Shown here: positions 15,115-34,181 of the stretch, one piece after another
Layout of the letters: each line of letters starts with the position of its first letter
How positions within the stretch are numbered: the stretch's first letter is position 1
From: Patescibacteria group bacterium
GTDB lineage: Bacteria; Patescibacteriota; UBA1384; XYA2-FULL-43-10; 1-14-0-10-43-13
Assembly (NCBI GenBank): GCA_041649155.1
Contig: JBAZNP010000001.1
Location: 302,564 to 366,563 of the forward strand
DNA: 64,000 bases
Direction of reading: 5' to 3'
The notes under the pieces: model-generated
Database searches by the model: none
What the model saw: the letters and a program-made list of their open reading frames with translations, nothing else
Told to the model about the DNA's origin: nothing
Position numbers and translations under genes: made by a program

Positions 15115-16358
15115 TATACTATGTTAATTTTTGGTAAAGGAAAGATAAAATGCCCATTAGATGAAAGATAATCTTGTTCTCTCCGTAGTATGTTTTCTTT
15201 GAAATGCCAGGGAAGAACCATGAAGTAATCAGGATTTAATTTTTTAGCCTCTTCTTCAGAAATAATAGGAATTAAAGAACCTGGGGTAAATCTACCAAAT
15301 TTGTATTCATTAACTTCAGCGATATAAGGAACATCTTTTTCCGATAAGTTACAATATTGAAGAATAACATTACCTTTAGTTGAAGCCCCGTACCCAATTA
15401 CCTTTTTCCCTTTGGATCTTAGATCATTTAAGAAATCTATAAGGTCTTTTTTGTGTTTTTCGACTTGTTTTTCAAATCCTCTAAAAACATCAATTTCTGA
15501 GTATCCTTCTTTCTTTTCTTTTTCTAAGATCTGATTAACTTTTGGACTTTCAGTAAATTTTGAGTTTCTTTTAGCTAGTGTTAGACAAAAGCTAGCTCCA
15601 TTAATCTCATTGAATTCCACATCGACGATCTTAAAACCAACCTTATCTACCATCCACTTGATTTGTTTTAAAGCATAATATTCGAGATGTTCATGACAAA
15701 CCGTATCATAAGACACATTCTCAATCATTTTAGGCATATAGCTCTGTTCTAAAATCCAAATGCCCTCGTCATCAAGAACTTCGTAAATTTCCTGCATAAA
15801 CTGAGTAGGATTTTCTAGATCATAAAACATAGCGATTGAAGTGACCACCTTGGCTTTATCTTCTGAAAAATCTTTCAATCTCGATGCAGAAAAGAAATCA
15901 GGGATATGTTTAATATGAGGAGGATAATATTCTTTAAATTTTTCTGAAGTAGGATCAATTCCTACTAGCTGTAAATTCTTATTTTTGTACGCTTTTAATA
16001 GAGTCGAGTCATTGCTAGCTATATCAACTACCAGATCTTTATCTTTAAGATTGATCGTTTTCTCTATTCTTTCTACAATTAATCCAAGATGATCAACCAT
16101 AGACTTATTTAAGCTAGAACGATAACCATAATTTTCGCCGTATAACAGGCTCAAATTATAATTATGTTTGAGCTGAAGCAGACCACAAGCATTTGGATTA
16201 GCTTGATCATCGCATTTAACTAACTCGAGCGGGCCCTTCTCAACCTCTTGATCTTTCTTGGGAAAGACACCGGTTAAGGCCTGATTTCCTAAATTTAATA
16301 CTGGAACCAGTTTATGATTACCACAAATTCTACAGTTTTTTATCTCTTCGTAAATCAC
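15114..16358 (-). CDS. Sugar C-methyltransferase (TylC3/NovU-like) with an N-terminal zinc-ribbon
   Basis: CRICGNHKLVPVLNLGNQALTG zinc-ribbon, followed by a methyltransferase domain. Confidence 0.65.
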   Translation of the reverse strand: MIYEEIKNCRICGNHKLVPVLNLGNQALTGVFPKKDQEVEKGPLELVKCDDQANPNACGLLQLKHNYNLSLLYGENYGYRSSLNKSMVDHLGLIVERIEKTINLKDKDLVVDIASNDSTLLKAYKNKNLQLVGIDPTSEKFKEYYPPHIKHIPDFFSASRLKDFSEDKAKVVTSIAMFYDLENPTQFMQEIYEVLDDEGIWILEQSYMPKMIENVSYDTVCHEHLEYYALKQIKWMVDKVGFKIVDVEFNEINGASFCLTLAKRNSKFTESPKVNQILEKEKKEGYSEIDVFRGFEKQVEKHKKDLIDFLNDLRSKGKKVIGYGASTKGNVILQYCNLSEKDVPYIAEVNEYKFGRFTPGSLIPIISEEEAKKLNPDYFMVLPWHFKENILRREQDYLSSNGHFIFPLPKINIV

Positions 16359-17311
16359 TTCGCAATTCCTCCGATTATTTTATAGAATTCAATATTTTTG
16401 ACCTGCTCTTTTATTGAACATAATTTTTTTGTTTGATTACTTAAAAAAGCGTCTACCTGTCTGTAAAGGCCTGGTTTATACAAATTGTCCAGTTTTTCAT
16501 CCATCGCTACTTCATCGATAGCAACTGAACCGATATTCTGAATCTGCAATTTTTCCATTGGTCGAAAAATTAGACGGTGTTTCTTGGTTAATATTTCAAC
16601 GCTCCAGCGCCCAGGGGACTCCCAATTCGCTTGATAAGAGAAAAGTGCACCGTTTTTAGCTTTGCCCGAACCAACAAAAATAGATGCTCTAGGATGCCAG
16701 TTTAGACCGCCTGCTGTATAAGCAGAAATTTTTTCAGGATCTCCACCAAGGAAAAAGGCTAAATCGATTACATGAGTTGAATTATGTAAAAACCACTCTT
16801 CTTTAACGCCTGGAGCTTTTTTTAAATCTGCTATCACATGGCTCCATTCAGTAAACTCAAAATTAAACGAAGTGACGCCACCATCTTTTTTAATTATTTT
16901 CTCAGCAGCAATTGTAGAAGCATAAAAACGGCGGTTATATCCGACATAAACTTTCGCTTGTTTTTTTTGAGCTAGATTGGCTACTTTTTGTATTTGCTGA
17001 TAATCAAAACCGCCCGGCTTCTCAACCAATATGTCCTTGAAGCCACTTTTTAAAAGCTCAATTGTAACATTGCCGATCTCATTTTCGCTTACAGCAACAA
17101 TCGCCTTTTTCGGGTAATCTTTATTTTCCTTAAGCCATTTGGTAATGCCGCCAACAATAACTTCAAGGTTTGTTGCTTTTTTAAAAGCATTAGCTGATTC
17201 ATTGCCACGCCCAATAACAACAATGTTTTGTTTCAAACTTTTTAATACTTTGGCATATTCTAAAGCCATTGGACCGGTTCCTACGAGCAAAATTTTTTGG
17301 TTATTTTTCAT
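16355..17311 (-). CDS. Gfo/Idh/MocA family oxidoreductase
   Basis: N-terminal Rossmann KILLVGTGPMALEYAKVL and overall architecture. Confidence 0.65.
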   Translation of the reverse strand: MKNNQKILLVGTGPMALEYAKVLKSLKQNIVVIGRGNESANAFKKATNLEVIVGGITKWLKENKDYPKKAIVAVSENEIGNVTIELLKSGFKDILVEKPGGFDYQQIQKVANLAQKKQAKVYVGYNRRFYASTIAAEKIIKKDGGVTSFNFEFTEWSHVIADLKKAPGVKEEWFLHNSTHVIDLAFFLGGDPEKISAYTAGGLNWHPRASIFVGSGKAKNGALFSYQANWESPGRWSVEILTKKHRLIFRPMEKLQIQNIGSVAIDEVAMDEKLDNLYKPGLYRQVDAFLSNQTKKLCSIKEQVKNIEFYKIIGGIAK

Positions 17312-17316
17312 GATTG

Positions 17317-18291
17317 TTATGTAAATGGATAATAATCGAACTTATCTTTTGAGTTTTTATTCAAGAAGTTTCTTAATGGCTCAAGCAACAAAAGGTGAAG
17401 TTTGGCTGATTCATCAAATTTTGGCAGAATGCATTTGCCGTTTTTTAAAAGATCTTCAACTATTTGAGCTGTTCTTTCGCTCTGAAATGGAATTGGCGCT
17501 TCAATTTCTTTCCATTGCCAACCATCCTTTTCTCTTGATATCCATGCCTTTTGTTCAGATTCCTTAGAAACGCAACGGCATTTATCCGATGTTATCTCAA
17601 CAACAACAGGTAATTCACCTTCTGGAAAGCAAGTGAAACTGCCAGAGCTTCCGTTTTTGAAAATTATATTTATAGTGCCATTAAACTCAAGGAATCCTTT
17701 TCGTTTGCTCTCAATTGGCTTCTTTGTTAACCCTGATGTTTCTATTTTGTAGTCAGTGCAGTCGGAAAGAAAAGCCATGTGATCAATGTAATGTATGGCG
17801 TTTGTAATAAGACCGTATTGGCTGCCAGTTACAGAATATGTAATTAAACTGTTAGAAAGAGTTTTTTTAATATTAAAATAAAAGGGCATGCTTCTCATAC
17901 TACAGTTCACCCATGCAATGCTTTTCTTTTTTTTGAGTAATTTCCCAACAACAGCATAATCTTCAAATTTTTGAAAAAGAAGTTTCTCCAGAATAAAGTG
18001 TTTGACTGTTTTATTCCTAAGAAGTTCCTCTACCACTTGCCGTCTAACATTTGAACTGGTTGGAATAATAGCAATATCAATTTCTTCCAGCTCATTATTT
18101 ATTTTATTCAGATACTTTATTGAGTGTTTAACGTCGCCATCAGGTATTAAATCATACCTCTCCTTGGCAGTTTCGAGCGAAGCTGGAAAAGGATCTACCA
18201 CAGTAATATTCAGTGGAGTTTTTACATTTTTAAGGGCTTGAAGATGTCTGCTTCCAAGTTGTCCTGCTCCAATTATATAAATATTCTTCAT
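17317..18291 (-). CDS. Gfo/Idh/MocA family oxidoreductase
   Basis: N-terminal IYIIGAGQLGSRHLQAL. Confidence 0.6.
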   Translation of the reverse strand: MKNIYIIGAGQLGSRHLQALKNVKTPLNITVVDPFPASLETAKERYDLIPDGDVKHSIKYLNKINNELEEIDIAIIPTSSNVRRQVVEELLRNKTVKHFILEKLLFQKFEDYAVVGKLLKKKKSIAWVNCSMRSMPFYFNIKKTLSNSLITYSVTGSQYGLITNAIHYIDHMAFLSDCTDYKIETSGLTKKPIESKRKGFLEFNGTINIIFKNGSSGSFTCFPEGELPVVVEITSDKCRCVSKESEQKAWISREKDGWQWKEIEAPIPFQSERTAQIVEDLLKNGKCILPKFDESAKLHLLLLEPLRNFLNKNSKDKFDYYPFT

Positions 18292-18425: not shown

Positions 18426-19550
18426 TTACATGAACTGGCGCATGATCTCGTCAGCAATCCGCTCTGCATTACCGCCGTTGGCCTTGATATGCTCGATCTG
18501 GTTCGGCATAAGTTGCTCTCCCAGCTTTCCGCTGTAGCCCAAGCTGAGCAGACGAGTAAGTTCGTCGAGACTGTCCGCGTAGCCGCAGGCACCTAGTTCA
18601 CAAAGCGGAAAACCTCCCATAAGACCTTTGGTCACATCGAGCCATTCCTGCATGCCGGTCTTCGGGAAGAGAAGAGCAAGGTTCTGCTTTCTCCATGCTG
18701 CGCTTTCGATCAGTGTGGTAGTAAACGCGCCGGTAATAAGATCAGACGCTGCGATGAGGTCCCGCACATTGTAAGCAGGACCGGTGCAGTCAAGATACTT
18801 GCCCTTGTCCCAGCGAGCAAAAGAAGCGCACGCCACTTTCCACTCCTCCCGCTCATGCTCCCATTTCCCGTCCTTGTCTCTTTCTAGAAGCATTGCCGGA
18901 TGCTGGCGAGCGATCAGGGTAACCGGCTGGTTAGCCTCAATGATTCCGGCAACCAGCTCCGCGAAGACCTCTCCAGTACGGTTAAGCTGCCCTGCAAAGA
19001 GCACTACGGTCTCGTCACTGCCAATTGCGAGGCCTTCTCGTGTCCTCTTGCCCAGGGCGTCAATCTCAGTTAGTTCACAATTGTAACCGTCCAAATACGG
19101 CCAACCCTCGATGAAAGTATCCGAGATCGGCATTCTAGGGAAAGTAATATGCGCCAGCTCAGCATCAAGCTTATCGTTGCAGAAAACGCCGGTGGGCACG
19201 ATCGTGCTCCAGTCATCCTTCTTATAGATTCCGGAGCCCCAGAAGTCGGTCTGCAGGTTGACCGGGCAGGTTATCCCCCTGCGCTTCATCTCCCGCACCA
19301 CCTCGAGTGAAGGCAAACGGTCGTTGCAGTCGATCGCACCATAGAACAGGTCGATCTCTCCGCAGGAGTCAAGGGCCTCTTCGGCTGTCGTATATGGCAG
19401 AAATTCGATTCCCGCCTTCGCCAGCGCATCGGTTGCCGGACCGACAGCATAAGAAATCACCTCGACCCCTCGCTGACGTAGAACTTGAACAACCGGACCG
19501 ACATTGTTTGCCGGACCAGCATCAAAACATGCCGATAAGATCTTCACCAC
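18426..19550 (-). CDS. Hypothetical protein in a GC-rich (~55%) gene, possibly a GT-B/TagF-like fold
   Basis: Clean 374-aa ORF whose base composition differs sharply from the neighbours. C-terminal DLITGAFTTTLIESAAW resembles the TagF-family signature. No confident function. Confidence 0.5.
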   Translation of the reverse strand: MVKILSACFDAGPANNVGPVVQVLRQRGVEVISYAVGPATDALAKAGIEFLPYTTAEEALDSCGEIDLFYGAIDCNDRLPSLEVVREMKRRGITCPVNLQTDFWGSGIYKKDDWSTIVPTGVFCNDKLDAELAHITFPRMPISDTFIEGWPYLDGYNCELTEIDALGKRTREGLAIGSDETVVLFAGQLNRTGEVFAELVAGIIEANQPVTLIARQHPAMLLERDKDGKWEHEREEWKVACASFARWDKGKYLDCTGPAYNVRDLIAASDLITGAFTTTLIESAAWRKQNLALLFPKTGMQEWLDVTKGLMGGFPLCELGACGYADSLDELTRLLSLGYSGKLGEQLMPNQIEHIKANGGNAERIADEIMRQFM

Positions 19551-19633: not shown

Positions 19634-20863
19634 CTAGTCGTCAATCCCATCTAGATTCACTGTATGGCGAAGCTTCCATTCTGAACCGACTTTTTTCCAG
19701 AGATGGGGAGAGCGAGCTTTATCACAAAGTTCAAGAAAACGTTCTGGCTTCATTTCAAGATAGTCCATAATTTCCTGAAAATATCGATCAGGGAACTCGC
19801 CATCAAATTTCCTGACCAGAGCTTGGCCTTCTTCGCGGGTTAAATGTTTGTTTCTAATCTCTTGAGAAGCATCATAAGTCGCACGACCAATGCCGAACTT
19901 CATGAAAGTAGTATAATAGTGCAAATCATCAATCTTATCGTCAATGCTGTTGTATTTGCTGTATGTGCCTTGTGTTCGAAACGGACGAGCCTTAAATCCT
20001 GTATTTTCGACAGCATAATAATAGACTTCCTGCGGAGTCCACTTAAGATAATAGCCTAAATAATGAACCTCTATGTTTGATTTTTCAAGTTCATTATGGT
20101 TAGCTGGCAAGAAAGCCATCAAATCCGCTGTATCAACCTTGTATTTTTCTTTTAACTCTTTAATAGAGACTCCGCCCAAATAAACATCGTCAATGCTTTT
20201 CATGCTAAAGTATGATTTATCTCTTAGTGATGAGGCATTATCGGCTATAGGATTACCATACTCAGCCTCGTTTTCTCCATAAAAAATAAGGGGAATATCA
20301 TACTTTAGAGCAATTTTGGGGCCAATATTTTTCTGCCCCAAAATGAACGTTTGGAATGGATGAAGCAAATTCTCAATCGAAAGTTTAGTTAGAAGTTTCA
20401 TCACCCGACCATTTTGCTTGAAAGTAATATTGTCAAAACCACCGATTTCAATCCAATTTTTCCAGTTTTTATAACCATAATCCGTATAAAGAATTGGGGG
20501 CCAAGTAACGGTTAATGGATGCATTCCATATTTATATTTAAGCACATGAGCCTGAAAGGCGCTGTCTTTTCCGCCGCTGCCTGGAACAATGCAATCATAG
20601 GAACCATCATTTTTACGATGTTTATCAAGAAGTTTAACTAACTCCTCTTCACGTTTTTTCCAATCAATCTGCTCTTTAACCTCAGCCTGACGACAAGCAT
20701 CGCAAACTCCTTCTTGATCCATATTTAAAGTAGTCTTTTTGCTTGATTTTGTATGTTTAAACTCTGGTGTTGAAGCAGGTCTCTGGTTGGAAGTCACGCA
20801 TTTAGTACAAAAAACTACTTTTTCCGGCAGTCCGTAGTACGTCTTAGGCTTGTCTTTACTCAT
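19634..20863 (-). CDS. N-acetyl sugar amidotransferase (PseA/WbuX family, PP-loop ATP pyrophosphatase)
   Basis: PP-loop CIVPGSGGKDS, N-terminal Cys cluster, and HisH/HisF paralogues immediately downstream. Confidence 0.85.
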   Translation of the reverse strand: MSKDKPKTYYGLPEKVVFCTKCVTSNQRPASTPEFKHTKSSKKTTLNMDQEGVCDACRQAEVKEQIDWKKREEELVKLLDKHRKNDGSYDCIVPGSGGKDSAFQAHVLKYKYGMHPLTVTWPPILYTDYGYKNWKNWIEIGGFDNITFKQNGRVMKLLTKLSIENLLHPFQTFILGQKNIGPKIALKYDIPLIFYGENEAEYGNPIADNASSLRDKSYFSMKSIDDVYLGGVSIKELKEKYKVDTADLMAFLPANHNELEKSNIEVHYLGYYLKWTPQEVYYYAVENTGFKARPFRTQGTYSKYNSIDDKIDDLHYYTTFMKFGIGRATYDASQEIRNKHLTREEGQALVRKFDGEFPDRYFQEIMDYLEMKPERFLELCDKARSPHLWKKVGSEWKLRHTVNLDGIDD

Positions 20864-20879
20864 TTTTATTCTCCTTGAA

Positions 20880-21548
20880 TTACTTTATTGTCTTTGCCCA
20901 ATTTTGATATATCTTAATCCCTTCACCAGCACTTTTCTCAGGATGAAATTGGGTAGCGAAAATATTATTTTTTTTAATACTGGAACAATATTTAATCCCT
21001 TCATAATCGGTCAGGGATAATATGTCCTCTGAATCGGAAGGTTTTACAAAAAAAGAATGAACAAAATACATGAATTCTCCGGGAGCTGTGTCAGATAAAG
21101 GCGAGTTACTCCAATAGTTTTTGTCATTATTAGGCGGGACTATTTGATTCCAACCAATTTGTGGTACTTTAATAACTTGTCCTTGATCATTATGAGTTGG
21201 AAATTTAACTACCCTCCCTTTCACTAAATCTAGACCTTTATGTAATCCAAATTCTTCGCTCTCAGAGAATAAGAGCTGTAACCCCAAACATACACCCATA
21301 AAAGGCTTACCGCTCTTTACAAAATCCCTAATAGGATCAATCAGCTCCATAGCTTTAATATTTTCCATCGCCTCACCAAATGCACCAACTCCAGGCAGAA
21401 TCGCACCGTCTGCTTTTAAGATTTCGTCTTTATCAGAAGTAATTTTTGAATCAAGGCCGATAAAAGAACAGGCATGCTGTACGCTATATAAATTGCCGGC
21501 CTTATAATCAATAATTGCAATCTTTTTCTTTTTTTTATCACTAGTCAT
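20880..21548 (-). CDS. Glutamine amidotransferase, HisH-like (WbuY-type)
   Basis: Class I GATase motifs GVCLGLQ and HPE. Confidence 0.85.
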   Translation of the reverse strand: MTSDKKKKKIAIIDYKAGNLYSVQHACSFIGLDSKITSDKDEILKADGAILPGVGAFGEAMENIKAMELIDPIRDFVKSGKPFMGVCLGLQLLFSESEEFGLHKGLDLVKGRVVKFPTHNDQGQVIKVPQIGWNQIVPPNNDKNYWSNSPLSDTAPGEFMYFVHSFFVKPSDSEDILSLTDYEGIKYCSSIKKNNIFATQFHPEKSAGEGIKIYQNWAKTIK

Positions 21549-21551
21549 TTT

Positions 21552-22433
21552 CTATTCCTTAATCTTGTATCGGCAATTAATACCATGAGCATGCAAATGA
21601 CTCTTAATCTCGCTTAAATCACAGGGTTTTATGTGTCCAAATTCTTTACCGCTTTTAAGGAATTCTATATTACCCTCTGTGCTATAATCGCCATCTTTTA
21701 TGTTTTTTCTAATAAAATCATAATGGAGAACGGAGGCCACAGCCACAGCATTTGCACCGCCATCTTTTACAACCTTTTCAATGTCAGTAGCATTTCCTGT
21801 TCCGCCATGAGCGATAACAGGAATTGAGACTGAATTAGCTACTTTTTTCACAAGATCCAAGTCAAAGCCCTTTCCCGTTCCTTCATTATCAACCGAGGTA
21901 AGAACTATTTCACCGGCTCCTAATTCTTCGACTTTTTTAGCCCAATCAAAAACTTCAACACCAGTATATTCTCTGGCATTGTCCGTATAAGCAAGATATG
22001 TGCCATCGGCCTGTTTAATTGCCTCAATCGCAACAACTATTGTTGATGAACCAAATATTCTTGAAGCCTCTTTGATAATCTCGGGGGTTTTTATTGCAGC
22101 TGTATTGAGACAGACTTTATCAGCGCCTGCCCTCAAAGCTTCTCTAATATCATCAACCGTTCTTATGCCACCACCAACAGTGAGAGGGATAAAGATCTCT
22201 TTCGCTGTACGAGTGATTATATCCTTTAAACTGTTTCTTTCATAAAGAGAGGCGACAACGTCCATATACATCAGTTCATCAGCGCCATTTTCATAATAAT
22301 ATTTAGCAAACTGCTCCGGTTTACCTAAAACCCTTAAGCCCTCAAGATGAATGCCTTTAACTAAGTTTGGCCCCTTAATATCCAACCTGGCAATTACTCT
22401 AATATTTTGCATTACTAAAATGATCCTTAACAA
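21552..22433 (-). CDS. Imidazole-glycerol-phosphate synthase cyclase subunit HisF-like (WbuZ-type)
   Basis: (beta/alpha)8 HisF signatures LDIKGPNLVKG...GGGIR...GADKV. The true start is probably the internal M at ~22412. Confidence 0.85.
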   Translation of the reverse strand: MLRIILVMQNIRVIARLDIKGPNLVKGIHLEGLRVLGKPEQFAKYYYENGADELMYMDVVASLYERNSLKDIITRTAKEIFIPLTVGGGIRTVDDIREALRAGADKVCLNTAAIKTPEIIKEASRIFGSSTIVVAIEAIKQADGTYLAYTDNAREYTGVEVFDWAKKVEELGAGEIVLTSVDNEGTGKGFDLDLVKKVANSVSIPVIAHGGTGNATDIEKVVKDGGANAVAVASVLHYDFIRKNIKDGDYSTEGNIEFLKSGKEFGHIKPCDLSEIKSHLHAHGINCRYKIKE

Positions 22434-23427
22434 ATTGTATTAATAATTCATACCCCATCACTTCACATTTATCGCTTCTGAAATATTTGTTAGATGTTGG
22501 AATAAAATCGCTATGCGGTTTTCCCCTAGATAGGCAATACATCTCATTATTTTCATAAAGGCATTCAAGCTCTTCTTCAACCATCAAAAGCTCATACATT
22601 TTTTCTCCGTTGATCTTCCCTATCGTATCAATTTTTATATTATCTGGTTTATGACCAAAATCAGGTGCCAGAACTTCAATCATCGCCTTAGCTAAATCTT
22701 TAATTTTAATCACTGGCATTTTTAGAATAAAAAGTTCACCGCCCTTTGACATTAGAGCCGCTTTTAAAACTAGTTCTGCTGCATCCGGTATCCTCATCAT
22801 AAAACGAGTCATTTTTCCATCCGTTAGGGTAACAGGCCCCCCTTTTTTTATTTGCTCATGAAAAATTGGGGCTACCGAACCTCGTGAACCAAAAACATTA
22901 CCAAATCGAACAGCTGAGAAAACAGTTTTATGATCGCCTTTATAATATTCTGCCGAAAGTGTAATTTTCTCTGCCAAGAGTTTCGTAGCGCCCATCACAT
23001 TGACAGGCATAGCTGCTTTATCCGTACTAACATGCACAAATTTTTCTACGTCAACAGAACGTGCGGCTTCAACCAGATTTTGAACCCCTAAAACATTGGT
23101 TTTAACAGCTTCGAAAGGATTTGACTCACAGAGTCCGACATGTTTCATGGCGGCAGCATTAAAAACAATGTCGGCACCCTCCATAGCTAAGAATACTCGA
23201 TCGCGATCTCTTACATCTCCAATCAAGAAAGTCACTTTACCAAGTGGCAGATATTGTAGCTCTCGTTTGAGCAAGAATTGTTTATGTTCATCACGAGAAA
23301 AAACTCTAACTTGTTTAACTGGATACTTGAGCAACCGTCTAACTATCTCACTACCAATTGAACCAGTTCCTCCCGTGACCAAAACAACTTTATCTTTAAA
23401 AAACCTTGTGAACTCTTTTTCGATCAT
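22399..23427 (-). CDS. UDP-GlcNAc 4,6-dehydratase (PseB/LegB/CapD-like)
   Basis: VLVTGGTGSIGSEIVRRLL plus polysaccharide-biosynthesis-protein architecture. Confidence 0.85.
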   Translation of the reverse strand: MIEKEFTRFFKDKVVLVTGGTGSIGSEIVRRLLKYPVKQVRVFSRDEHKQFLLKRELQYLPLGKVTFLIGDVRDRDRVFLAMEGADIVFNAAAMKHVGLCESNPFEAVKTNVLGVQNLVEAARSVDVEKFVHVSTDKAAMPVNVMGATKLLAEKITLSAEYYKGDHKTVFSAVRFGNVFGSRGSVAPIFHEQIKKGGPVTLTDGKMTRFMMRIPDAAELVLKAALMSKGGELFILKMPVIKIKDLAKAMIEVLAPDFGHKPDNIKIDTIGKINGEKMYELLMVEEELECLYENNEMYCLSRGKPHSDFIPTSNKYFRSDKCEVMGYELLIQFVKDHFSNAKY

Positions 23428-24545
23428 TTCTTTACCTTTAAGAGATTAGATTTTAATCGTTTTACCACATAATCAATCTCTTTATCAGTTAGTTTATTAT
23501 AAAACGGCAAAGCAATAGTTCTCTCAGAAACTGCTTCAGTTTTAAGAAAGTCGCCTTTCTTAAAACCATATTCTTTAAGGTAAGGCTGCAAATGAATGGC
23601 CGGAAAATAAACATTACAGCCAATACCATCAGCTTTTAGCAACTCAATAAGGTGATCTCTTTGTTTGCTTGAATAACTGGAGTTAAGTCTAATAACGTAG
23701 ACGAACCAGCTTCTTTTAATTTTATCAGAATCTGATGGAGGAAGAATTATCTCGTTAGTTCCCGCCAAAGCTTTATTATATTTTTGTGCAATCTTTTTTC
23801 TCTTATCCAATAAATCAGAAATTCTATCCAGTTGAGCTAAACCTAGAGCACAATTAATATCACTTAATCTGTAATTGTAACCAAGACGATTGTGAGACAA
23901 CCATGCCATAGTATCGCGTCCCTGATTTCTGAGGCTTTTTGCTGTCTCGGCAATTTTTTTATTATTCGTTACCAACATTCCGCCTTCGCCAGTTGTCATT
24001 TGTTTATTTGGGTAAAATGCAAAAACAGCACAGTCACTAAAAGTGCCTGCTTTTTTCTTGTCAATCTCAGCTCCAATTCCCTCGCAGGCATCTTCAATAA
24101 CATAAAGGTTATGCTTCTTTGCAATTTGTCTAATTTTTAACATGTTGGCCGGATAACCGAACACATGAACAGGGATAATTGCTTTTGTTTTCTTTGTTAT
24201 CTTAGATTCAATCTCATTTTCATCGATATTCAATGTATCTAGATTTATATCAACAAAAACCGGTTTGGCTCGTTCAAACAAAAAGCAGTTAGTTGAAGCA
24301 ACAAAACTAAAAGGAGTAGTTATAACTTCATCACCGTCTTTTATATCTAGGGCACGAATGCAAAGATGTAGAGCGCTGGTACCGCTATTTAGGGCAACTG
24401 CATACTTTGTGTCAATATATTTAGCAAATTTTTCTTCAAACTCAGGTAATTTTGGACCAAGACTTAAATAGCTTGTCTTTAACACAGAGACAACAGCCTC
24501 TATTTCCTTCTTTGTAATATCAGGACCAGAAAGTGGAATGTTCAT
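23424..24545 (-). CDS. DegT/DnrJ/EryC1/StrS family nucleotide-sugar aminotransferase (PseC/LegC-like)
   Basis: PLP fold and family motifs. Confidence 0.85.
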   Translation of the reverse strand: MNIPLSGPDITKKEIEAVVSVLKTSYLSLGPKLPEFEEKFAKYIDTKYAVALNSGTSALHLCIRALDIKDGDEVITTPFSFVASTNCFLFERAKPVFVDINLDTLNIDENEIESKITKKTKAIIPVHVFGYPANMLKIRQIAKKHNLYVIEDACEGIGAEIDKKKAGTFSDCAVFAFYPNKQMTTGEGGMLVTNNKKIAETAKSLRNQGRDTMAWLSHNRLGYNYRLSDINCALGLAQLDRISDLLDKRKKIAQKYNKALAGTNEIILPPSDSDKIKRSWFVYVIRLNSSYSSKQRDHLIELLKADGIGCNVYFPAIHLQPYLKEYGFKKGDFLKTEAVSERTIALPFYNKLTDKEIDYVVKRLKSNLLKVKK

Positions 24546-24937
24546 TTTTTAACCTCTTTTTTAATCTTTATGGGAACTCCGAAAGCAACGCTGTTTGCCG
24601 GTACATCTTTATTAACAAAAGAAAAAGCGCCAACTACTGCATTTTCACCAATAGTAACCCCTGGCATGACGACAGAATGACTACCCAAACAAGCGCCTTT
24701 TTTAAGATGAACCTTTCCGCTTTTTTCGTCAATAGTTGAGACTGAATAGATTGAACAATGAGAACCGATCTGAACCTCGTCCTCAATGATAACCCCTTTT
24801 TTAGCATTAATATAAGTAAAAGCACCAATATCGGTCATTTTACCTAACAAAAAACTATCAATATTTTGAACCACCCAATTGTACTTGGTCGGTTTACCAT
24901 CCTCAATTTTTGGATATTGCCAGTTGCTAAATCTCAT
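24542..24937 (-). CDS. Hexapeptide-repeat N-acetyltransferase (LegH/PglD-like, short)
   Basis: 131 aa LbH repeats: GENAVVGAFSFVNKDVPANSVAFGVP. Confidence 0.55.
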   Translation of the reverse strand: MRFSNWQYPKIEDGKPTKYNWVVQNIDSFLLGKMTDIGAFTYINAKKGVIIEDEVQIGSHCSIYSVSTIDEKSGKVHLKKGACLGSHSVVMPGVTIGENAVVGAFSFVNKDVPANSVAFGVPIKIKKEVKK

Positions 24938-24945
24938 TTTCTCTC

Positions 24946-26121
24946 CTAATAGGTAATTTGCTTTGATAATAAGTCATTTCCCAAAGGTGTTTTTTCTAAA
25001 ACAGCAACAATGCGCTGGCTAGCCTTGCCATCACCGTAGGGATTATGATTAGGATTCTTTTCCTTTTTTGCTATCGTACCATACTCAAGAGCTTTTTTGA
25101 TAGCTTTTATAATTTGTTTTTCATCATAATCAACATCTACAACATTAGACGCACGTTCTCGATTGTTCTGCCGCGAGCCGATATTTACGACAGGGAGACC
25201 AAAAGAAGGTGCTTCGATTATTCCACTTGAAGAATTACCAATGAGGACATCTGACGACTTTAGAAAACCGAGGTAATCCTTGTGCGGAACATTCTTCATC
25301 AAATTAAAAAAAGAAGTATCTCGATAACTCTCTAATATTTTTATAATTTTTTGGCCGCCGGCATCAGAGTTGGGATAAATTACCAATGTCTGAGAATTAA
25401 AAGATGCCACGGCTTCAACAATCTTTTTAACATTATTCTCCAAAACATCTAATTCTGAAGCAACAGGATGTTGGATTAGAATAAACAATGATTTATCTTG
25501 ATTAAAATTATATTTCTTGAATAATTTTGATTTTTCAGGCAAAACCTCATTCAAGATACAATCAAGAGATGGAGCACCAGAAATGTGAACGTTCTCCTTT
25601 TTTTCGCCAAGTTTAATTATTCTTTCTTTAGCCTTTTTTGTCGCAGCAAAATGAATATGAGAAAGTTTGGTTATAGCATGACGAATAACTTCGTCGATAT
25701 GGCCAGAGACTTCACCACCATGAATATGAGCAACGGAAATACCAAGATAATTCGCAGCTATGGCACCGGCTAACATTTCTCCACGATCGCCTAGAACAAC
25801 AAGAATGTCAGGCTTATATTTTTTGAATACATCAGCAAACCTATTTATTGCCTCCCCTACAAAATGAGCCATGGAGATACCATCATCTTCCATGCCGATA
25901 GCCACCTCTGCAGTAACAGGAAAGCCATCTTTTTTTATTTCATCTATGGTTCGGCCGAACTGCGGCAGTAGATGCATCCCTGTCACAACTAATTGAAGTT
26001 CAAGCTTATCTGATAATTCAACTGCCTTCATTACAGGCGTTAAGATTCCATAGTCAGCTCTTGTTCCCGTAATAAAACATATTTTTCTTCTATTTTTTTT
26101 CATTATGAAAGATTTTCCCAA
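24946..26121 (-). CDS. UDP-N-acetylglucosamine 2-epimerase, hydrolysing type (NeuC/LegG-like)
   Basis: ICFITGTRADYGIL and HxxGG motifs typical of NeuC. Confidence 0.85.
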   Translation of the reverse strand: MGKSFIMKKNRRKICFITGTRADYGILTPVMKAVELSDKLELQLVVTGMHLLPQFGRTIDEIKKDGFPVTAEVAIGMEDDGISMAHFVGEAINRFADVFKKYKPDILVVLGDRGEMLAGAIAANYLGISVAHIHGGEVSGHIDEVIRHAITKLSHIHFAATKKAKERIIKLGEKKENVHISGAPSLDCILNEVLPEKSKLFKKYNFNQDKSLFILIQHPVASELDVLENNVKKIVEAVASFNSQTLVIYPNSDAGGQKIIKILESYRDTSFFNLMKNVPHKDYLGFLKSSDVLIGNSSSGIIEAPSFGLPVVNIGSRQNNRERASNVVDVDYDEKQIIKAIKKALEYGTIAKKEKNPNHNPYGDGKASQRIVAVLEKTPLGNDLLSKQITY

Positions 26122-27836
26122 AGCAATGGCTCGTCTTTTTTAATAATCTTAATTGCTTTCATCCCAATTATTTTGTCAAAAAATTCAGGTTTTATTCCAG
26201 TTTCAGGCCTCTTAATCACAAGCATTTCATCTGAAATTTTTTCACTTTTTTTTATATCACGATTAGCAAAGATGCTTTTCCTGGCCACTCTCCTTACATT
26301 AAGTTCTGATTCACACAACTTCTTATTTCCATCGCCTATCGCTTTCTCTATATTTCGTATTGCCTTTACAAGCTCTTTCAACTCTTCAGGATTTATTGAA
26401 GCCTTATGATCTGGACCGATCATCTTCTTATCTAAAGTGAAGTGTTTTTCAACCACACGTGCACCCAGTGCTGCAGCTGCAATTGATGCTTCTAGCCCGA
26501 TTGTATGATCTGAATATCCAATAAGTGTCCCAAATTTCTGCTTCAAAGCTTTCATAGCCTTTAAATTAACTGTATCGTGACTGGCTGGATAACTTGAAGT
26601 GCAGTGAAGCAAAATTAGCTGCTTGTTTTCCTTAGTAATAATGTCAACAGCACTTGAAATCTCCTCTATTGTTGACATCCCGGTTGAGAGGATAATTGGT
26701 TTTCCGAACTTAGCAACTTGTTTAAGTAGCTGTGTGTTAGTCAAATCTCCAGAACCAATTTTAAAAGCTGGAACATCTAATTCATTTAGAAAATCCGCAC
26801 TTCTAGGATCAAAAGGAGTTGAAAGAAAAATGATTTTCTTTTCATCGCAATACTTTTTTAATTCCCTAAATTCGCCTTCAGATAATTCTAACTCTTTCAA
26901 CATTTCAAATTGGGTTTTATTAGAGAATTCATCTTTCTGATACTCTGCCTTTGGTGCATCCAGAGATACAAGAAGTTCCGTATTAAATGTTTGGAATTTC
27001 ACCGCGTTTGCGCCAGCTTCCAATGCAGCATCAACCATTTTCTTAGCGATTTCTAAACTGCCATTATGGTTAACTCCCACTTCAGCTATAATAAAGATTC
27101 CGTCACTGAGTGAAAAGTTGGAAATATTATTTTCGAATAACTTTTCAAACATGATTTCTGCAATATTAAAATCAATTGCTTCATCAATATCTACCGACCT
27201 TTCCCGAGGCATAACAATCGCAGAAAGGTTAGAATGATCTGTTAGTTTGCCTTCTTCTAATATGACTTCACGACGGGTAACATAAATTGCACCGTTAAGT
27301 CGATAGGCTTCGGGCAAATCCTGACTTTGAGCATTAATATTATGAACTTTTAATAATGGTTTGGCCTTGTTCTTTTCCAACTGATACATCCATTCTGGCC
27401 GTTCGCTAATTTCACAAACCGAAACACAAGAATTTGTTTTTGTCTCAATCAATCTGTTAATAGCCAAATCAATATCCTCTGTCTGAATAAGAGGAGTAGT
27501 TGGTTGTATCAGAACAACAATGTCATATTTGCTATCGTTCTTCTGTTCGACTAAGTTTAAAGCATGTAATATAACTTGAAAAGTTTTCGCTGTGTTAGTG
27601 GCTAACTCAGCTGGACGAATAAAAGGAATTTCTGCTCCCCATTCTTCTGAGATTTTAGCAATTTCTTTATCATCAGTAGAGACAATAACGCGATCGATAA
27701 AATTCGAGCCCAAAGCTGCACCAATTGCATGAGCAATAAGTGGCTTTCCAGCCAATGTCTTAATATTCTTTCCAGGCAAACGTTGAGAACCACCTCTAGC
27801 AGGAATAATTGTTAAGATTTTATGATTTTTTATCAT
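26103..27836 (-). CDS. Bifunctional fusion: CMP-nonulosonic acid synthetase (NeuA/LegF-like, N-terminal) plus nonulosonic acid synthase (NeuB/LegI-like, C-terminal with SAF domain)
   Basis: N-terminal ILTIIPARGGSQRLPGKNIK cytidylyltransferase. C-terminal FIIAEVGVNHNGSLEIAKKMVDAA NeuB TIM barrel. All in one 577-aa ORF. Confidence 0.8.
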   Translation of the reverse strand: MIKNHKILTIIPARGGSQRLPGKNIKTLAGKPLIAHAIGAALGSNFIDRVIVSTDDKEIAKISEEWGAEIPFIRPAELATNTAKTFQVILHALNLVEQKNDSKYDIVVLIQPTTPLIQTEDIDLAINRLIETKTNSCVSVCEISERPEWMYQLEKNKAKPLLKVHNINAQSQDLPEAYRLNGAIYVTRREVILEEGKLTDHSNLSAIVMPRERSVDIDEAIDFNIAEIMFEKLFENNISNFSLSDGIFIIAEVGVNHNGSLEIAKKMVDAALEAGANAVKFQTFNTELLVSLDAPKAEYQKDEFSNKTQFEMLKELELSEGEFRELKKYCDEKKIIFLSTPFDPRSADFLNELDVPAFKIGSGDLTNTQLLKQVAKFGKPIILSTGMSTIEEISSAVDIITKENKQLILLHCTSSYPASHDTVNLKAMKALKQKFGTLIGYSDHTIGLEASIAAAALGARVVEKHFTLDKKMIGPDHKASINPEELKELVKAIRNIEKAIGDGNKKLCESELNVRRVARKSIFANRDIKKSEKISDEMLVIKRPETGIKPEFFDKIIGMKAIKIIKKDEPLLWENLS

Positions 27837-27844: not shown

Positions 27845-29095
27845 TTAATTAGTCTGCTTTATCATTTTTGTTTCCCACTTCAAAAAAGGTTGCAATATGC
27901 CGTTCCGAGACGATTCATTAAAAAGCGATTTTGGCGTAGTACCATTATCAACAATATTAAACCGTATTGTTTCTACTCGGTCGAATATCTCATAAGGAAC
28001 TGAATTCGTGTTTAGCCCAACGTTGACATTATAAGTATCAATGTTCAACCACTTAGCAGGCACCACCAGATCAGTTTGATAATATCCTGGTTTACGCTCA
28101 TTTTGTAGTTCTGGGCTTAGGTCATAGTCAGTGCTGCAAAGAACAGTTATCCCATCCATTGTTTGCAATGAAATCCAAACCAGGGCATTTTTAATAGCTT
28201 CATTAACCTCATACTCGACCCTTATGATTGCCTCTTCATTATAATTAATATTTTCAGAAATATTTCTTATTTGCGGGTTTAATTGAACCTTTCTTAAATT
28301 CATTTTTTTTCTAGGGTCTCTTTTCTGCTTATAAATTTTACCCTTTGTAAAACCTGAAACTAAATATTTCTTAATAACCTCTGACGAAGGTCCACTGGCA
28401 ATAATCTTCCCATGTTCGAGCATTATAGATCGTTGGCAAAGACGATTCACTGCTTCTAAATTATGACTTACAAATATGACCGTTCGACCGCCTTTTGCAA
28501 CATCTTGCATTTTACCTAAGCATTTTTTCTGAAATTGAATATCTCCAACTGCTAAAACTTCGTCTACAATCAATATCTCTGGCTCCAAATGAGCTGCAAC
28601 AGCAAAAGCAAGACGAACGTACATTCCAGATGAATAACGTTTTACTGGAGTGTCAAGAAACTTTTCAATTTCAGAAAAAGCAACAATTTCATCAAATTTG
28701 CGTCTTATTTCTCGCTGAGTCATTCCAAGTATAGCACCATTTAAAAAAATGTTTTCGCGACCAGTGAGCTCTGGGTGAAAACCAGTGCCAACCTCCAAAA
28801 GAGAGGCCACGCGGCCACGCATCCTAATTTTCCCTTCAGTAGGAGGAGTAATTTGAGATAAAATTTTTAAAAGAGTACTTTTGCCTGCACCGTTTCTCCC
28901 AATAATGCCAACTGTCTCTCCTTGATTTACCTCAAAATTTAATCCGCTTAGAGCTTTAAAACTCTCTTTAGGAGAAACTCTTTTTTTAAAATCAAACAAT
29001 CCGGCTATAGAATCACGCAAAGAGTGATAGGGCTCTACTGCACCTATCTTATAGACTTTTTCCAAGTTTTCGACTTTTATTATTGCTTCAGACAT
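27845..29095 (-). CDS. ABC transporter ATP-binding protein, Wzt-like, with C-terminal glycan-binding domain
   Basis: Walker A GRNGAGKST, signature LSGG-like YSSGM, Walker B ILIVDE. A ~170-aa C-terminal extension is present. Confidence 0.85.
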   Translation of the reverse strand: MSEAIIKVENLEKVYKIGAVEPYHSLRDSIAGLFDFKKRVSPKESFKALSGLNFEVNQGETVGIIGRNGAGKSTLLKILSQITPPTEGKIRMRGRVASLLEVGTGFHPELTGRENIFLNGAILGMTQREIRRKFDEIVAFSEIEKFLDTPVKRYSSGMYVRLAFAVAAHLEPEILIVDEVLAVGDIQFQKKCLGKMQDVAKGGRTVIFVSHNLEAVNRLCQRSIMLEHGKIIASGPSSEVIKKYLVSGFTKGKIYKQKRDPRKKMNLRKVQLNPQIRNISENINYNEEAIIRVEYEVNEAIKNALVWISLQTMDGITVLCSTDYDLSPELQNERKPGYYQTDLVVPAKWLNIDTYNVNVGLNTNSVPYEIFDRVETIRFNIVDNGTTPKSLFNESSRNGILQPFLKWETKMIKQTN

Positions 29096-29110
29096 TTTAC
29101 CACTCTTCCT

Positions 29111-29971
29111 TTAAAGAACATCGGCAAGAAAACGCTCGGTTTTTCTAAAATAGAAAATTCCGATTAATAAGAATATTATACTAACCAGAAATGAATATAA
29201 CAGAATTTGGAAATTAATCGCTTCGGTTTTTAATAATGATGCTCTGGCAGTCGTAATAACTCCGGTCATAGGATTTAAATACATAAGCCATTGGAACTTT
29301 GCAGGGATAATGCTTACCGGATAAATAACCGGTGTAACAAATAGTAAAGTTTGAATCATGAAAGGCAGAACATATCTTACATCCCTAAATTTTGCGTTCA
29401 AAGCAGAGAGTAATAGCCCTAATCCTGCTGCGCCAAGAAAAGATATTAACAACAGAACAGGGATTAATATCACTCCGATAACAGTGGGGGTAAAATGATA
29501 ATAGATCATCAAAGCAAAAAGAATAAGTAGGGCAAAAAGAAAATCTATTGCAGGAGTAACTGTGGTCGCAAACGGTAATAAAAGACGAGGGAAGTAAACT
29601 TTCTTAATTATCCCCTCGTTAGCGATCAAACATTCACTGGCCGAAGTGAGAGAAATTGAAAAGTAATTCCATAGTAATAATCCTGTATAAACAAATATCG
29701 GGTATGGAATATTTTCAGAAGGAATCTTTGCAAAGCTGCCAAAGAAAATAGAAAAGACTACCATAGTTATGAATGGTTGAAAAATTGCCCAAGCTATTCC
29801 AAGAATAGTTTGTTTATATTTGACTTTTACATCCCTCCAAGCAAAAATATAGAGCAATTCCCTATACCGCCAAACTTCCGGTAAGTTGAGATCTATTAAC
29901 CCTCTCGGCGGTTTTATTTCGTAACAAACTTCTTTTGCTTTCATCAACGTAATTTCTCTTAAATTAACCAC
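29111..29971 (-). CDS. ABC-2 type polysaccharide exporter permease (Wzm-like)
   Basis: 286 aa with 6 predicted TM helices, adjacent to Wzt. Confidence 0.8.
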   Translation of the reverse strand: MVNLREITLMKAKEVCYEIKPPRGLIDLNLPEVWRYRELLYIFAWRDVKVKYKQTILGIAWAIFQPFITMVVFSIFFGSFAKIPSENIPYPIFVYTGLLLWNYFSISLTSASECLIANEGIIKKVYFPRLLLPFATTVTPAIDFLFALLILFALMIYYHFTPTVIGVILIPVLLLISFLGAAGLGLLLSALNAKFRDVRYVLPFMIQTLLFVTPVIYPVSIIPAKFQWLMYLNPMTGVITTARASLLKTEAINFQILLYSFLVSIIFLLIGIFYFRKTERFLADVL

Positions 29972-29973: not shown

Positions 29974-31104
29974 TTACCAGCGGCTATTATTAATAGTTAT
30001 TGTCGAGGCATTTTCAATAAAGACTCCATTTGCTCTTGCTCTCTCTTTTTCAGCCCTACTGATAAGTGGCATTTCTTTTTTCTCAGATTGGTAGTCACTT
30101 TCAGTCATTAATTTAATTAATTCTTGAAATTTTACTTTTGGCTCCCAACCAAGCTCTTTTTTAGCTTTGGAAAAATCACCGATTAGTAAATCCACTTCTG
30201 CCGGTCTAAAATAATTAGTATCTATCCTCACTATCGTTTTTCCTGAATCAATATTTACCCCGACTTCATCAGAGCCTTGACCTTGCCATTTAATATTTAA
30301 TCCTAAATATTTTGCTGCCACTTCAACACATTCTCTGACTGAATGAGTTTCGTTGGTTGCTATAACAAAATCATCCGCTTTTTCTTGTTGTAGCATCAAC
30401 CACATTGCCTCGACATAATCTTTTGCATAACCCCAATCTCTTCTAGCTTCAAGATTTCCAAGATAAATGCACTCTTGTAGTCCTAATTTAATACGTGCTA
30501 ATCCTTGAGTAATTTTTCTAGTTACAAAAGCCTCTCCGCGTCTAGGCGACTCGTGATTAAAAAGTATTCCGTTACAAGCAAAAAGATTGTAACTTTCTCG
30601 ATAATTTTTTGTTATCCAATATGCATAAACTTTAGCACAACCATAAGGGCTTCTCGGATAAAAGGGCGTGGTTTCTTTTTGCGGCATTTCTACAACTTTT
30701 CCGAACATTTCACTACTTGAAGCTTGGTAGAACTTAGTGTTGATGCCTGACTCACGAATGGCGTCTAGGATTCTAAGAGTTCCAAGCCCGGTAGTGTCGC
30801 CAGTGTATTCTGGAATATCAAAGCTAACTTTAACATGGCTCTGGGCTCCAAGATGGTATATTTCATCTGGTTTAATTTTTTCTATTAGCCTACTAATGCT
30901 GCTTGCATCAGATAGATCTCCATAGTGAAGAAATAATTTTATATCTTTCTCGTGAAGGTCTTTATGAAGATGATCTATTCTGCTCCTGTTAAAGGAAGAT
31001 GATCGACGAACCAGCCCATGTACTTCATACCCTTTTTCAAGTAAAAACTCGGCTAGGTATGAGCCGTCTTGTCCAGTGATTCCAGTTATGAGCGCTCTTT
31101 TCAT
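29974..31104 (-). CDS. gmd: GDP-mannose 4,6-dehydratase
   Basis: [27 protein letters not shown] is the canonical GMD N-terminus. Confidence 0.9.
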
Positions 31105-31246: not shown

Positions 31247-31948
31247 TCACTCAGTAACAGCGAATTTTTTGACGAGGTGCCTGTTTAGCATCTCACCAGT
31301 TTCAAAACCGGCCATTTTGGCCAATTCATCGAGAATCTCTGAGGCGATCCTCTCCTGAGCTTTAATATAAGTCTCGCCAAGTAAGTCTTGACCCTCCGTA
31401 AGTAACCACGGATAACGCTCCCTTAACCCTTCGATGCGGTCTCGAAGCATGACTACCTCTGTTCCATCGTTTCCGCCGCAGAGATCATCTGCTACGTGAA
31501 AGATCTTCTCCTCGATAGTGGCGCCACACTGATTGAAGTAGTTAAGTGAGGCATGTCCAGACAGAGCTGACATCCGTGTGATCTTTGGGTTAATCCCGAT
31601 CTCATGTAGCCACGCCGTTTGCTCTTCGGCTGCCTGTGTGAAAGCAGCACATTTCTCCATACCGCTGGCGATCAACTCTTCAGCTCTTGCTCTCTCTACT
31701 TTCTTCTTTGCGTCATGAAGTATGGCAGCGAGGACGATATTACTCGAGTCGATTTGCGCCTCCATTGCAAGTGCCTCAGCGACCTCTGCTACTCTTACAC
31801 AGTGACGAGGAACATTGTTCCAGTCCGGATCTCCGAGAAGACCCGATTTCATCATTGCCCCAAAAGCCAGATCTTTTCCCTCTGCTGTGAGGCAGAGAAG
31901 GTTGAGTCGGTCAATATACCACTCATAATCGTCGAACAGCTTTCCCAA
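31247..31948 (-). CDS. HD-domain phosphohydrolase (GC-rich island)
   Basis: H..HD motif (AILHDAKK), helical protein of 233 aa. Composition is ~50% GC. Confidence 0.5.
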   Translation of the reverse strand: MGKLFDDYEWYIDRLNLLCLTAEGKDLAFGAMMKSGLLGDPDWNNVPRHCVRVAEVAEALAMEAQIDSSNIVLAAILHDAKKKVERARAEELIASGMEKCAAFTQAAEEQTAWLHEIGINPKITRMSALSGHASLNYFNQCGATIEEKIFHVADDLCGGNDGTEVVMLRDRIEGLRERYPWLLTEGQDLLGETYIKAQERIASEILDELAKMAGFETGEMLNRHLVKKFAVTE

Positions 31949-32020
31949 TTTACTTTCCTCTCTTTCGCTTGTGTTGCCACTCTCTATTATGGGCTTATGC
32001 TTGTACCATGTAACAAAACC

Positions 32021-32572: not shown

Positions 32573-32663
32573 GTAAAATCACCCGCCCTTGTTTGTATTT
32601 CCGCACGATCGCGGACTTATCCATATACCATAAAAGTGTTAAATTGTCAAAGATTTTCTTGAC

Positions 32664-32700: not shown

Positions 32701-32718
32701 CGGACGAGGAGGAGCATA

Positions 32719-33216: not shown

Positions 33217-33281
33217 CAGATATTTATTGAATACTTAGCGCCAATTTGATATCTTTTAATCATATAAATAAAGGAGTCTAT

Positions 33282-34166: not shown

Positions 34167-34181
34167 AATTGAGGAATGTTT

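Follow-up and report, generated by a model that had tools for sequence, protein, structure and literature searches.

Which nonulosonic acid (NulO) would be made by a long glycan operon in a member of the Patescibacteria, and by which route? The operon lies in a 64-kb stretch of contig JBAZNP010000001.1 (hereafter the window, i.e., the whole stretch of DNA that was analyzed), from a Patescibacteria metagenome-assembled genome (MAG). Within it, at positions 19634-27836, the original prediction had recognized a pathway to legionaminic acid (Leg) rather than pseudaminic acid (Pse), accompanied by an amidotransferase with HisH- and HisF-like partners. Surface NulOs shape recognition by hosts, phages, and immune systems. 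We draw here on which genes are present, on their families and key motifs, and on where they fall in trees and how their order is conserved, all of which were observed directly, and from these we consider it probable (roughly 0.7) that the operon would make a CMP-activated 5,7-diamino-3,5,7,9-tetradeoxy-nonulosonate from UDP-GlcNAc through a NeuC-dependent Leg-type route and would then amidinate one of its N-acetyl groups.

Window proteins were searched against Pfam and NCBIfam profiles, with the curated NCBIfam cut-offs applied. Exactly eight co-linear genes fill 19634-27836, all of those predicted and all on the minus strand, with overlaps or at most 16 nt between neighbors and with E-values that chance would not produce:

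26103-27836, minus strand: NeuA-NeuB fusion of 577 aa, an N-terminal CMP-nonulosonate synthetase followed by a C-terminal nonulosonate synthase with SAF

24946-26121, minus strand: NeuC-type hydrolyzing NDP-sugar 2-epimerase (385 aa from 26103, the start chosen by the gene caller)

24542-24937, minus strand: LbH (left-handed beta-helix) acyltransferase of 131 aa with Hexapep repeats, presumed to be the 4-N-acetyltransferase

23424-24545, minus strand: DegT-family pyridoxal-phosphate-dependent sugar 4-aminotransferase (Pfam E 2e-122)

22399-23427, minus strand: soluble CapD/Polysacc_synt_2 UDP-GlcNAc 4,6-dehydratase of 342 aa (Pfam E 2e-102)

21552-22433, minus strand: HisF-like (WbuZ-type) barrel protein (His_biosynth E 2.5e-62; 286 aa from the gene caller's start at 22412)

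20880-21548, minus strand: HisH-like class-I glutamine amidotransferase (TIGR01855, 195.8 bits against a cut-off of 105.4)

19634-20863, minus strand: WbuX/NASAT PP-loop N-acetyl-sugar amidotransferase of 409 aa (TIGR03573, 365 bits against a cut-off of 203.2)

The case for a Leg-type route begins with NeuC. This protein scores 454 bits on TIGR03568 (cut-off 235.9), and its closest solved relative (5XVS/5ZLR, 261 bits) is named GDP/UDP-N,N'-diacetylbacillosamine 2-epimerase (hydrolyzing). In our trees—small, unrooted neighbor-joining (NJ) trees with 200 bootstraps and with references partly defined by gene context alone—it joins the NeuC of Legionella pneumophila, with Escherichia coli K1 NeuC and the NeuCs of lga-type Leg clusters on the opposite side (100% bootstrap). 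The L. pneumophila enzyme has been shown to act in CMP-Leg synthesis, on UDP-N,N'-diacetylbacillosamine (UDP-diNAcBac). The NeuA-NeuB fusion carries CTP_transf_3 (aa 9-160, E 1.8e-27), NeuB (aa 267-505, E 1e-99), and SAF (aa 520-576) domains. Its NeuA domain falls in the NeuA/LegF group, split from PseF at 100%, while its NeuB domain passes TIGR03569 (458.9 bits, cut-off 399.65), fails the PseI model (316.3 bits, cut-off 340.25), and lies, with 100% bootstrap, outside the clade formed by Campylobacter jejuni PseI from the Protein Data Bank (PDB) and two context-defined PseI proteins. The NeuB domain is 51% identical to a Bacteroidota lga-type NeuB, 47% to L. pneumophila NeuB, and 44% to E. coli K1 NeuB. 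The fusion was also considered as an unusual feature in itself, an idea that was rejected, as collinear fusions of 550-625 aa make up about 50 of the 150 best cluster representatives at 50% identity.

A Pse pathway would be suggested by the NCBIfam models on which the dehydratase and the aminotransferase score best, PseB (290.6 bits) and PseC (360.4 bits), and by the top solved match of the NeuB domain, C. jejuni PseI. Yet both of those scores fall below the cut-offs (407.75 and 423.5, respectively), as does that on the PseF model (187.6 against 205.7), such that the Pse equivalog models all fail, PseI included. The PseI structure score (222.6 bits), moreover, does not discriminate, being indistinguishable from those of Neisseria meningitidis NeuB (214.9 bits) and SpsE (206 bits). 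PseG and PseH, for which context-defined queries were used, gave no tblastn match at E ≤ 1e-3 in the whole window, and the NeuC-type enzyme that is present is not used by a Pse route. With the NeuB and NeuA domains also outside the PseI and PseF clades, a Pse pathway is hardly credible, and the choice of Leg over Pse in the original prediction is upheld. Neither a PtmE-like nucleotidyltransferase nor a CBS-nucleotidyltransferase was detected in the window.

The amidination half of our reading draws on intact motifs and on a solved homolog. WbuX matches PDB 8WEX, the L. pneumophila N-acetyl sugar amidotransferase (an enzyme of lipopolysaccharide, LPS), with 539 bits and 56-59% identity. The N-acetyl sugar amidotransferase (NASAT) family is marked by an SGGxDS PP-loop and a Zn-binding tetracysteine (CxxC-Xn-[GN]xCxxC). 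Both motifs, on which the predicted function had been made to hinge, are intact in the window protein, i.e., SGGKDS at residues 96-101 and C19xxC22...G52xC54xxC57, the latter aligned with the Zn ligands of 8WEX. The HisH-like protein keeps the nucleophile Cys (GVCLG) and the His-Pro-Glu residues. The HisF-like protein is 59.6% identical to the HisF paralog of the L. pneumophila LPS locus and keeps the equivalent of D11, with D130 replaced by E, as in all six glycan-linked paralogs that were compared (the window's and those of loci L029, L010, L015, L004, and L002, Legionella's included). As this replacement is common to all six, it looks like a family trait, and in combination with the retained D11 it would fit a barrel that channels ammonia rather than one that performs the cyclase reaction.

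The genomic company of WbuX is consistent with a NulO substrate. The best 120 matches of the WbuX search were all metagenomic proteins of about 80% identity, and the L. pneumophila locus was recovered by a search seeded with the 8WEX sequence. Orthologs of 78-79% identity adjoin NulO clusters in other phyla. One of them (79% identical), in a Bacteroidota genome, comes after a Leg cluster of the classical lga type, others follow the same gene cassette as the window's in WOR-1 and in another uncultured bacterium, and another, in a Silvanigrella-like contig, has Leg-like genes on one side and Pse genes on the other. Two WbuX/NASAT subfamilies can be told apart, one of about 408 aa (the window's) and one of 436-460 aa (as in L. 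pneumophila; L029 2753-4135), each about 80% conserved across phyla and with about 59% identity between them. Locus L015 (9127-11910 and 14830-16435) holds a second HisF-WbuX set beside a window-type one, and the WbuX of this second set is 55% identical to the window's.

By homology, the pathway would run as follows. The CapD-family dehydratase would convert UDP-GlcNAc to a 4-keto-6-deoxy sugar (by oxidation and dehydration), the DegT enzyme would install a 4-amino group, and the 131-aa LbH protein would acetylate that group. The NeuC-type enzyme would then remove UDP and epimerize C2, the NeuB domain would carry out the condensation with phosphoenolpyruvate, and the fused NeuA domain would make the CMP-sugar. 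For the amidination, ammonia from the HisH-like glutaminase would pass via the HisF-like barrel to the PP-loop enzyme WbuX, which would activate the acetamido carbonyl with ATP and yield an acetamidino group, in line with the proposal made for Legionella and its Leg5Am7Ac. GT-B (glycosyltransferase B-type) or Maf-like transferases of the operon would add the sugar to a glycan, and the ABC-2 transporter would export it. We infer all of these chemical steps from sequence, as we do the D-glycero-D-galacto configuration, the choice of the nitrogen that would be amidinated, and the acceptor.

A number of observations weigh against this reading, beginning with the first two enzymes, which lie outside the lineages of characterized Leg pathways (LegB/LegC, PglF/PglE). 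The dehydratase scores only 68 bits on the LegB model TIGR04180. Its best solved relative is Pen (6BWC, 298 bits), an enzyme of the Bacillus thuringiensis Pse pathway, followed by FnlA, CapE, PseB, and PglF (186 bits), and it is 42% identical to a context-defined PseB vs 26-28% to the Leg-type dehydratases compared. The aminotransferase, which misses the LegC cut-off (298 against 420) as well as that of PseC, forms a clade of its own (100% support, NJ), and this clade joins PseC-context enzymes, not LegC and L. pneumophila ORF21 (99% bipartition, a statement of lineage only and not of product configuration). Its closest solved relative is PDB 7B0M, an entry for which no paper was found. The LbH protein is without PglD_N and covers only the C-terminal part of the NeuD/PglD model; the HisF-like protein scores 273.8 on the WbuZ model, below the cut-off of 299.7; and the position of the NeuB domain relative to Leg and Neu5Ac (N-acetylneuraminic acid) references has support of only 10-46% (NJ, with context-defined references and L. 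pneumophila NeuB added). Small NJ trees with partly context-defined references are themselves a limit, and, within limited literature searches, no member of this cassette was found to be chemically characterized. Because the dehydratase and the aminotransferase sit on the Pse-pathway side of their families, "legionaminic" is only a class assignment, with the configuration predicted. The phylogenetic placement that had been proposed as a check groups NeuC with the Leg enzyme and puts NeuB outside PseI; it does not separate NeuB from Neu5Ac synthases, and it sets the aminotransferase apart from LegC. None of the outcomes that the original prediction had named as refuting it was observed.

Against these points stands a precedent in Bacillus subtilis. 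The window dehydratase carries T135-D136-K137 (STDKA) and the triad T-x9-M145-x3-K149, and in a tree of relatives from named genomes its clade is sister to the Pen clade. Members of the clade carry the same STDKA and T-x9-M-x3-K motifs and adjoin NeuC/NeuB wherever the flank is long enough, whereas Tyr takes the place of this Met in the triads of the Pen and PseB clades. SpsM of B. subtilis is a soluble dehydratase of the same family, with the T-x9-M-x3-K triad, and it starts a UDP-linked Leg pathway; it can be replaced by PglF, or by Pen together with Pal, while PseB is not among the listed genes that restore Leg, and several B. subtilis sps enzymes resemble Pse-pathway enzymes with a product that is nonetheless Leg (PMC7439481). 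Pse-looking early enzymes that make Leg have a precedent, and we therefore take the NeuC-dependent Leg-type route as the best explanation of the window cluster.

The same evidence bears on a reading in which the pathway class is retained and the product differs, i.e., another 5,7-diamino nonulosonate isomer (acinetaminic-type or epi-Leg-type) that is then amidinated. Here, a PseB-like inversion at C5, or an opposite C4 configuration set by the aminotransferase, would be followed by C2 epimerization by NeuC, and a pair of GFO/IDH/MocA oxidoreductases could add further epimerization. Such a product would be in keeping with the mixed affinities of the enzymes (dehydratase and aminotransferase on the Pse side; NeuC, NeuB, and NeuA on the Leg/Neu side), with the two oxidoreductases that travel with the cassette, and with the placement of cassette enzymes in clades apart from every reference used. 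On the contrary, the Met-type triad is unlike the Tyr of the PseB and Pen clades, SpsM makes a Leg precursor with that Met triad, and NeuC groups with an enzyme acting on UDP-diNAcBac. We therefore see another isomer as possible though unlikely. A label such as PseB-like or LegC-like is not enough to tell the isomer that is made, and sequence alone does not settle the stereochemistry in either direction.

A further dehydratase clade was encountered among these relatives. The CapD-family dehydratases of loci L018-L021, from Saccharibacteria and Paceibacterota MAGs, form a clade apart, in which Leu occupies the Met/Tyr position of the triad (STDKAAEPN.TLGATK). A NeuB homolog (41-42% identical to the window's) adjoins the dehydratase at three of these four loci, the fourth contig being too short to tell, and this clade may represent another nonulosonate route in Patescibacteria.

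The Leg-type reading gains from the way in which the genes are kept together elsewhere. In WOR-1 and at three further loci of uncultured bacteria, the core NeuB-NeuC-LbH-DegT-dehydratase stays together as one unit, a Margulisiibacteriota contig carries the DegT-dehydratase pair, and in Methanococcoides burtonii the gene order is the same except that a PglD-type acetyltransferase fills the slot of the short LbH protein. Depending on the protein, cassette members are 48-75% identical to the window's. HisF-HisH-WbuX follow the core at three loci, including a pair of near-identical WOR-1 records, and the core is intact in loci without WbuX/HisH/HisF, namely L011, L014, and M. burtonii. This synteny indicates that the core is a conserved mobile unit. 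In WOR-1, an ATPase 44% identical to the window's lies 2.5 kb upstream of the same cassette. A GFO/IDH/MocA pair also accompanies the cassette in several unrelated genomes (L015 11912-13850, 57-59% identical; L011 13482-15430; L014 2385-4260), directly following WbuX in L015, and could serve further epimerization or modification of the sugar.

Two side observations concern individual members of the cassette. The short LbH gene was considered as a truncated pseudogene, which was rejected because the same slot in four other loci is filled by full-length orthologs (133-134 aa, 68-75% identity). In the WOR-1 cassette (L010 7585-8973), the aminotransferase gene and the dehydratase gene are separated by an inserted one for a B12-binding radical SAM (S-adenosylmethionine) enzyme.

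The travel of the core without the amidination genes also speaks to a reading in which the locus makes two sugars, as in E. coli O145: NeuC and NeuB-NeuA would make Neu5Ac, and the dehydratase, the aminotransferase, the LbH protein, and WbuX/HisH/HisF would make an amidinated di-amino hexose. This would accord with a NeuB domain that is not separated from Neu5Ac synthases (its identity to K1 NeuB being close to that for L. pneumophila NeuB, 44 vs 47%) and with the literature on WbuX-family enzymes, which amidinate hexosamines in E. coli O145 and Pseudomonas aeruginosa. However, NeuC is split from K1 NeuC at 100% bootstrap, the nearest WbuX orthologs adjoin NulO clusters, and the closest characterized relative of the amidotransferase is that of the Legionella Leg locus. 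As the five core genes form one block and travel together even where WbuX is missing, Neu5Ac plus a separate amidino-hexose is distinctly improbable.

The conserved cassette gives the idea of another isomer a broader form. Taken as a whole, the combination of a Pen-sister Met-triad dehydratase, a PseC-side aminotransferase, a mini-LbH protein, NeuC, NeuB, and often a GFO/IDH/MocA pair might constitute a distinct third route, to an isomer other than Leg or Pse, a suggestion that we make tentatively and at well below even odds. If it were true, such a sugar would be widespread among uncultured phyla and at least one methanogen. We otherwise retain the Leg-type route. The new element, judged from these comparisons, appears to be an uncharacterized recruitment variant of the early enzymes that is widespread; as far as limited searches show, this cassette's recruitment of early enzymes is described nowhere, and those searches found no paper on NulOs in Patescibacteria. 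The practical value of the finding is limited because good descriptions of both the pathway class and the amidination module exist and the amidotransferase is already named in public annotation ([quoted passage not shown]).

The eight genes form part of a minus-strand operon of 22 genes (8523-31104) that begins with gmd and ends with an LbH acetyltransferase. Its genes mostly overlap or are spaced by at most 25 nt, and the only gaps wider than that, of 83 and 134 nt, lie on either side of an ORF (open reading frame) of atypical G+C (18426-19550). The remaining operon genes, followed by the divergent rml genes, are:

29974-31104, minus strand: gmd, GDP-mannose 4,6-dehydratase, the first operon gene (TIGR01472, 579 bits against a cut-off of 415)

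29111-29971, minus strand: ABC-2 permease (ABC2_membrane clear)

27845-29095, minus strand: ABC ATPase (ABC_tran clear) with a weak Wzt_C-like tail

18426-19550, minus strand: 374-aa protein, candidate GT-B nonulosonate transferase (no Pfam family; BFO_1060, 25 bits; HP motif)

16355-18291, minus strand: two GFO/IDH/MocA oxidoreductases (Pfam)

15114-16358, minus strand: NDP-sugar C-methyltransferase (Methyltransf_14, Methyltransf_13, and Methyltransf_23 domains)

14185-15114, minus strand: short Gmd-like SDR (short-chain dehydrogenase/reductase) of 309 aa, possibly an Rmd-type 4-reductase (Gmd, 172 bits; Rmd 2PK3, 64 bits)

13215-14195, minus strand: GT2 (family 2 glycosyltransferase)

12722-13213, minus strand: methyltransferase

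11449-12696, minus strand: 415-aa protein with no family match, candidate GT-B (HP motif)

10064-11452, minus strand: BFO_1060-like GT-B (BFO_1060, 53 bits; HP motif)

9193-10071, minus strand: MptE/Maf-like protein (just under the Pfam threshold)

8523-9224, minus strand: Vat/CatB-like LbH acetyltransferase, the last operon gene

33246-37864, plus strand: rmlA, rmlC, rmlB, and rmlD for dTDP-L-rhamnose (four of four pass the NCBIfam cut-offs)

The glycan probably also contains 6-deoxyhexoses from GDP-mannose and dTDP-rhamnose branches. The original prediction had listed gmd, a sugar C-methyltransferase, and a dTDP-L-rhamnose set, all of which are present, with two further, unassigned ORFs lying between rmlB and rmlD. 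Its rmd fared less well: a short SDR is there, and it is nearer to GDP-mannose dehydratases than to the sole solved Rmd. The same holds for the Wzm/Wzt exporter, for which the ABC-2 permease and the ATPase (27845-29971) are clear while the Wzt_C match of the ATPase, at 29.0 bits, stays just below the Pfam threshold of 30.4. The best NCBIfam names for this pair are teichoic-acid and galactan exporters, all below cut-offs, and we presume from family membership that it is the glycan exporter. Because the organism is known as a Patescibacteria MAG, "O-antigen-like" should be read as a surface glycan of unspecified kind.

Candidates for the transfer of the sugar, be it to an ABC-exported polymer or straight to a protein, include three putative GT-B ORFs with an HP motif (10064-11452, 18426-19550, and 11449-12696). 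BFO_1060 is an ortholog of Tannerella forsythia Pse/Leg transferases, and the scores of the first two ORFs on its model are far below the cut-off of 200. The ORF at 18426-19550, with a G+C of 46-56% vs about 35% around it, seems to have been acquired separately and inserted between WbuX and the two oxidoreductase genes.

In this small-genome member of the Patescibacteria, a 22-gene operon would be devoted to a glycan with a predicted positively charged acetamidino group, and this glycan is a plausible player in attachment to a host cell. The view that such an outlay is unusual metabolic investment for a reduced genome does not hold, as NulO genes are present in other Patescibacteria loci too.

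Elsewhere in the window, housekeeping genes (ValRS, TsaD, MurE, XerD, and a VirB4-like ATPase) fit a bacterial chromosome. The VirB4-like ATPase (58743-60566, plus strand) belongs to the CD1110 family, and the match of the valine-tRNA ligase (41188-43617, minus strand) stops near position 700 of NCBIfam models that are 860-863 residues long, such that its C-terminal part appears to be missing. Between gmd and rmlA lies a G+C-rich island (31247-33141, 45-49%, both strands) with three ORFs: one of 233 aa with an HD-like motif, one of 183 aa with a Nudix box that is possibly a GDP-sugar hydrolase, and one of 182 aa with a His-rich C-terminal half, for which inspection by eye suggests a cupin fold. 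A second glycan gene set (1320-8397, plus strand) comprises a GT2 with a DUF2304 protein, two more GT2, a GT4, a 641-aa unassigned protein, and an NAD-dependent epimerase that weakly resembles GDP-fucose synthase. Rfam gave a single match in the window, a SAM riboswitch (RF00162, 1086-1215, minus strand), which at 56.1 bits is above the gathering score.

Among the closest known systems is the LPS O-antigen locus of L. pneumophila serogroup 1, which has the same set of functions, whose genes are assigned to Leg5Am7Ac, and whose product is poly-Leg5Am7Ac. Its order is NASAT-HisF-HisH-NeuA-NeuB-NeuC-PglD-aminotransferase-rmlC-rmlD-rmlB. Every protein of this Leg locus finds its best window match in the present cluster (NASAT 56.5%, HisF 59.6%, HisH 41%, NeuB 47%, NeuC 43%, and NeuA 37% identity). 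In both, the amidotransferase, HisF, and HisH adjoin NeuA, NeuB, and NeuC; rml genes lie close by, and there is an ABC-2 exporter (wzm/wzt in L. pneumophila). However, in the L. pneumophila locus the acetyltransferase is of the PglD type, the aminotransferase (ORF21) is a 500-aa CBS-DegT protein from a different clade, NeuA and NeuB are separate proteins, the NASAT (ORF28) is of the different, longer subfamily, and the dehydratase is encoded elsewhere (lpg0966); the window, for its part, comes from a Patescibacteria MAG.

Other systems share single parts of the cassette. The sps genes of B. subtilis (SpsM, C, D, G, E, F) resemble it, when compared by the triad, in having a soluble CapD-family dehydratase with Met, and they differ in being without an amidination module, the NeuC-type enzyme being a feature of the window. 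The lga-type Leg clusters of Acinetobacter and E. coli consist of a dehydratase, a LegC-family aminotransferase, NeuC, NeuB, an acetyltransferase, a CBS-nucleotidyltransferase, and a cytidylyltransferase. They follow the same overall logic, with NeuB 46-51% identical to the window's, whereas their dehydratase and aminotransferase, with 26-28% and 27-30% identity, respectively, are of other subfamilies, their NeuCs group with K1 NeuC and apart from the window NeuC, and the CBS-nucleotidyltransferase is one that the window is without. The Pen/Pal Pse route of B. thuringiensis offers, in Pen (6BWC), the closest solved relative of the dehydratase and its sister clade. Pen, however, has SSNAA and Tyr where the window dehydratase has STDKA and Met, and at two loci placed with Pen in the tree a PseG-like gene lies downstream, while the window dehydratase clade adjoins NeuC/NeuB.

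For amidination, the parallels extend across several acetamidino-forming systems, namely WbuX/WbuY/WbuZ in E. coli O145, WbpG in P. aeruginosa, PseA/PtmG in C. jejuni, and AglXYZ in Methanococcus maripaludis. Substrates vary among them, with hexosamines in some and nonulosonates in others, while all, like the window cluster, pair a tetracysteine PP-loop enzyme with HisH-like and HisF-like partners.

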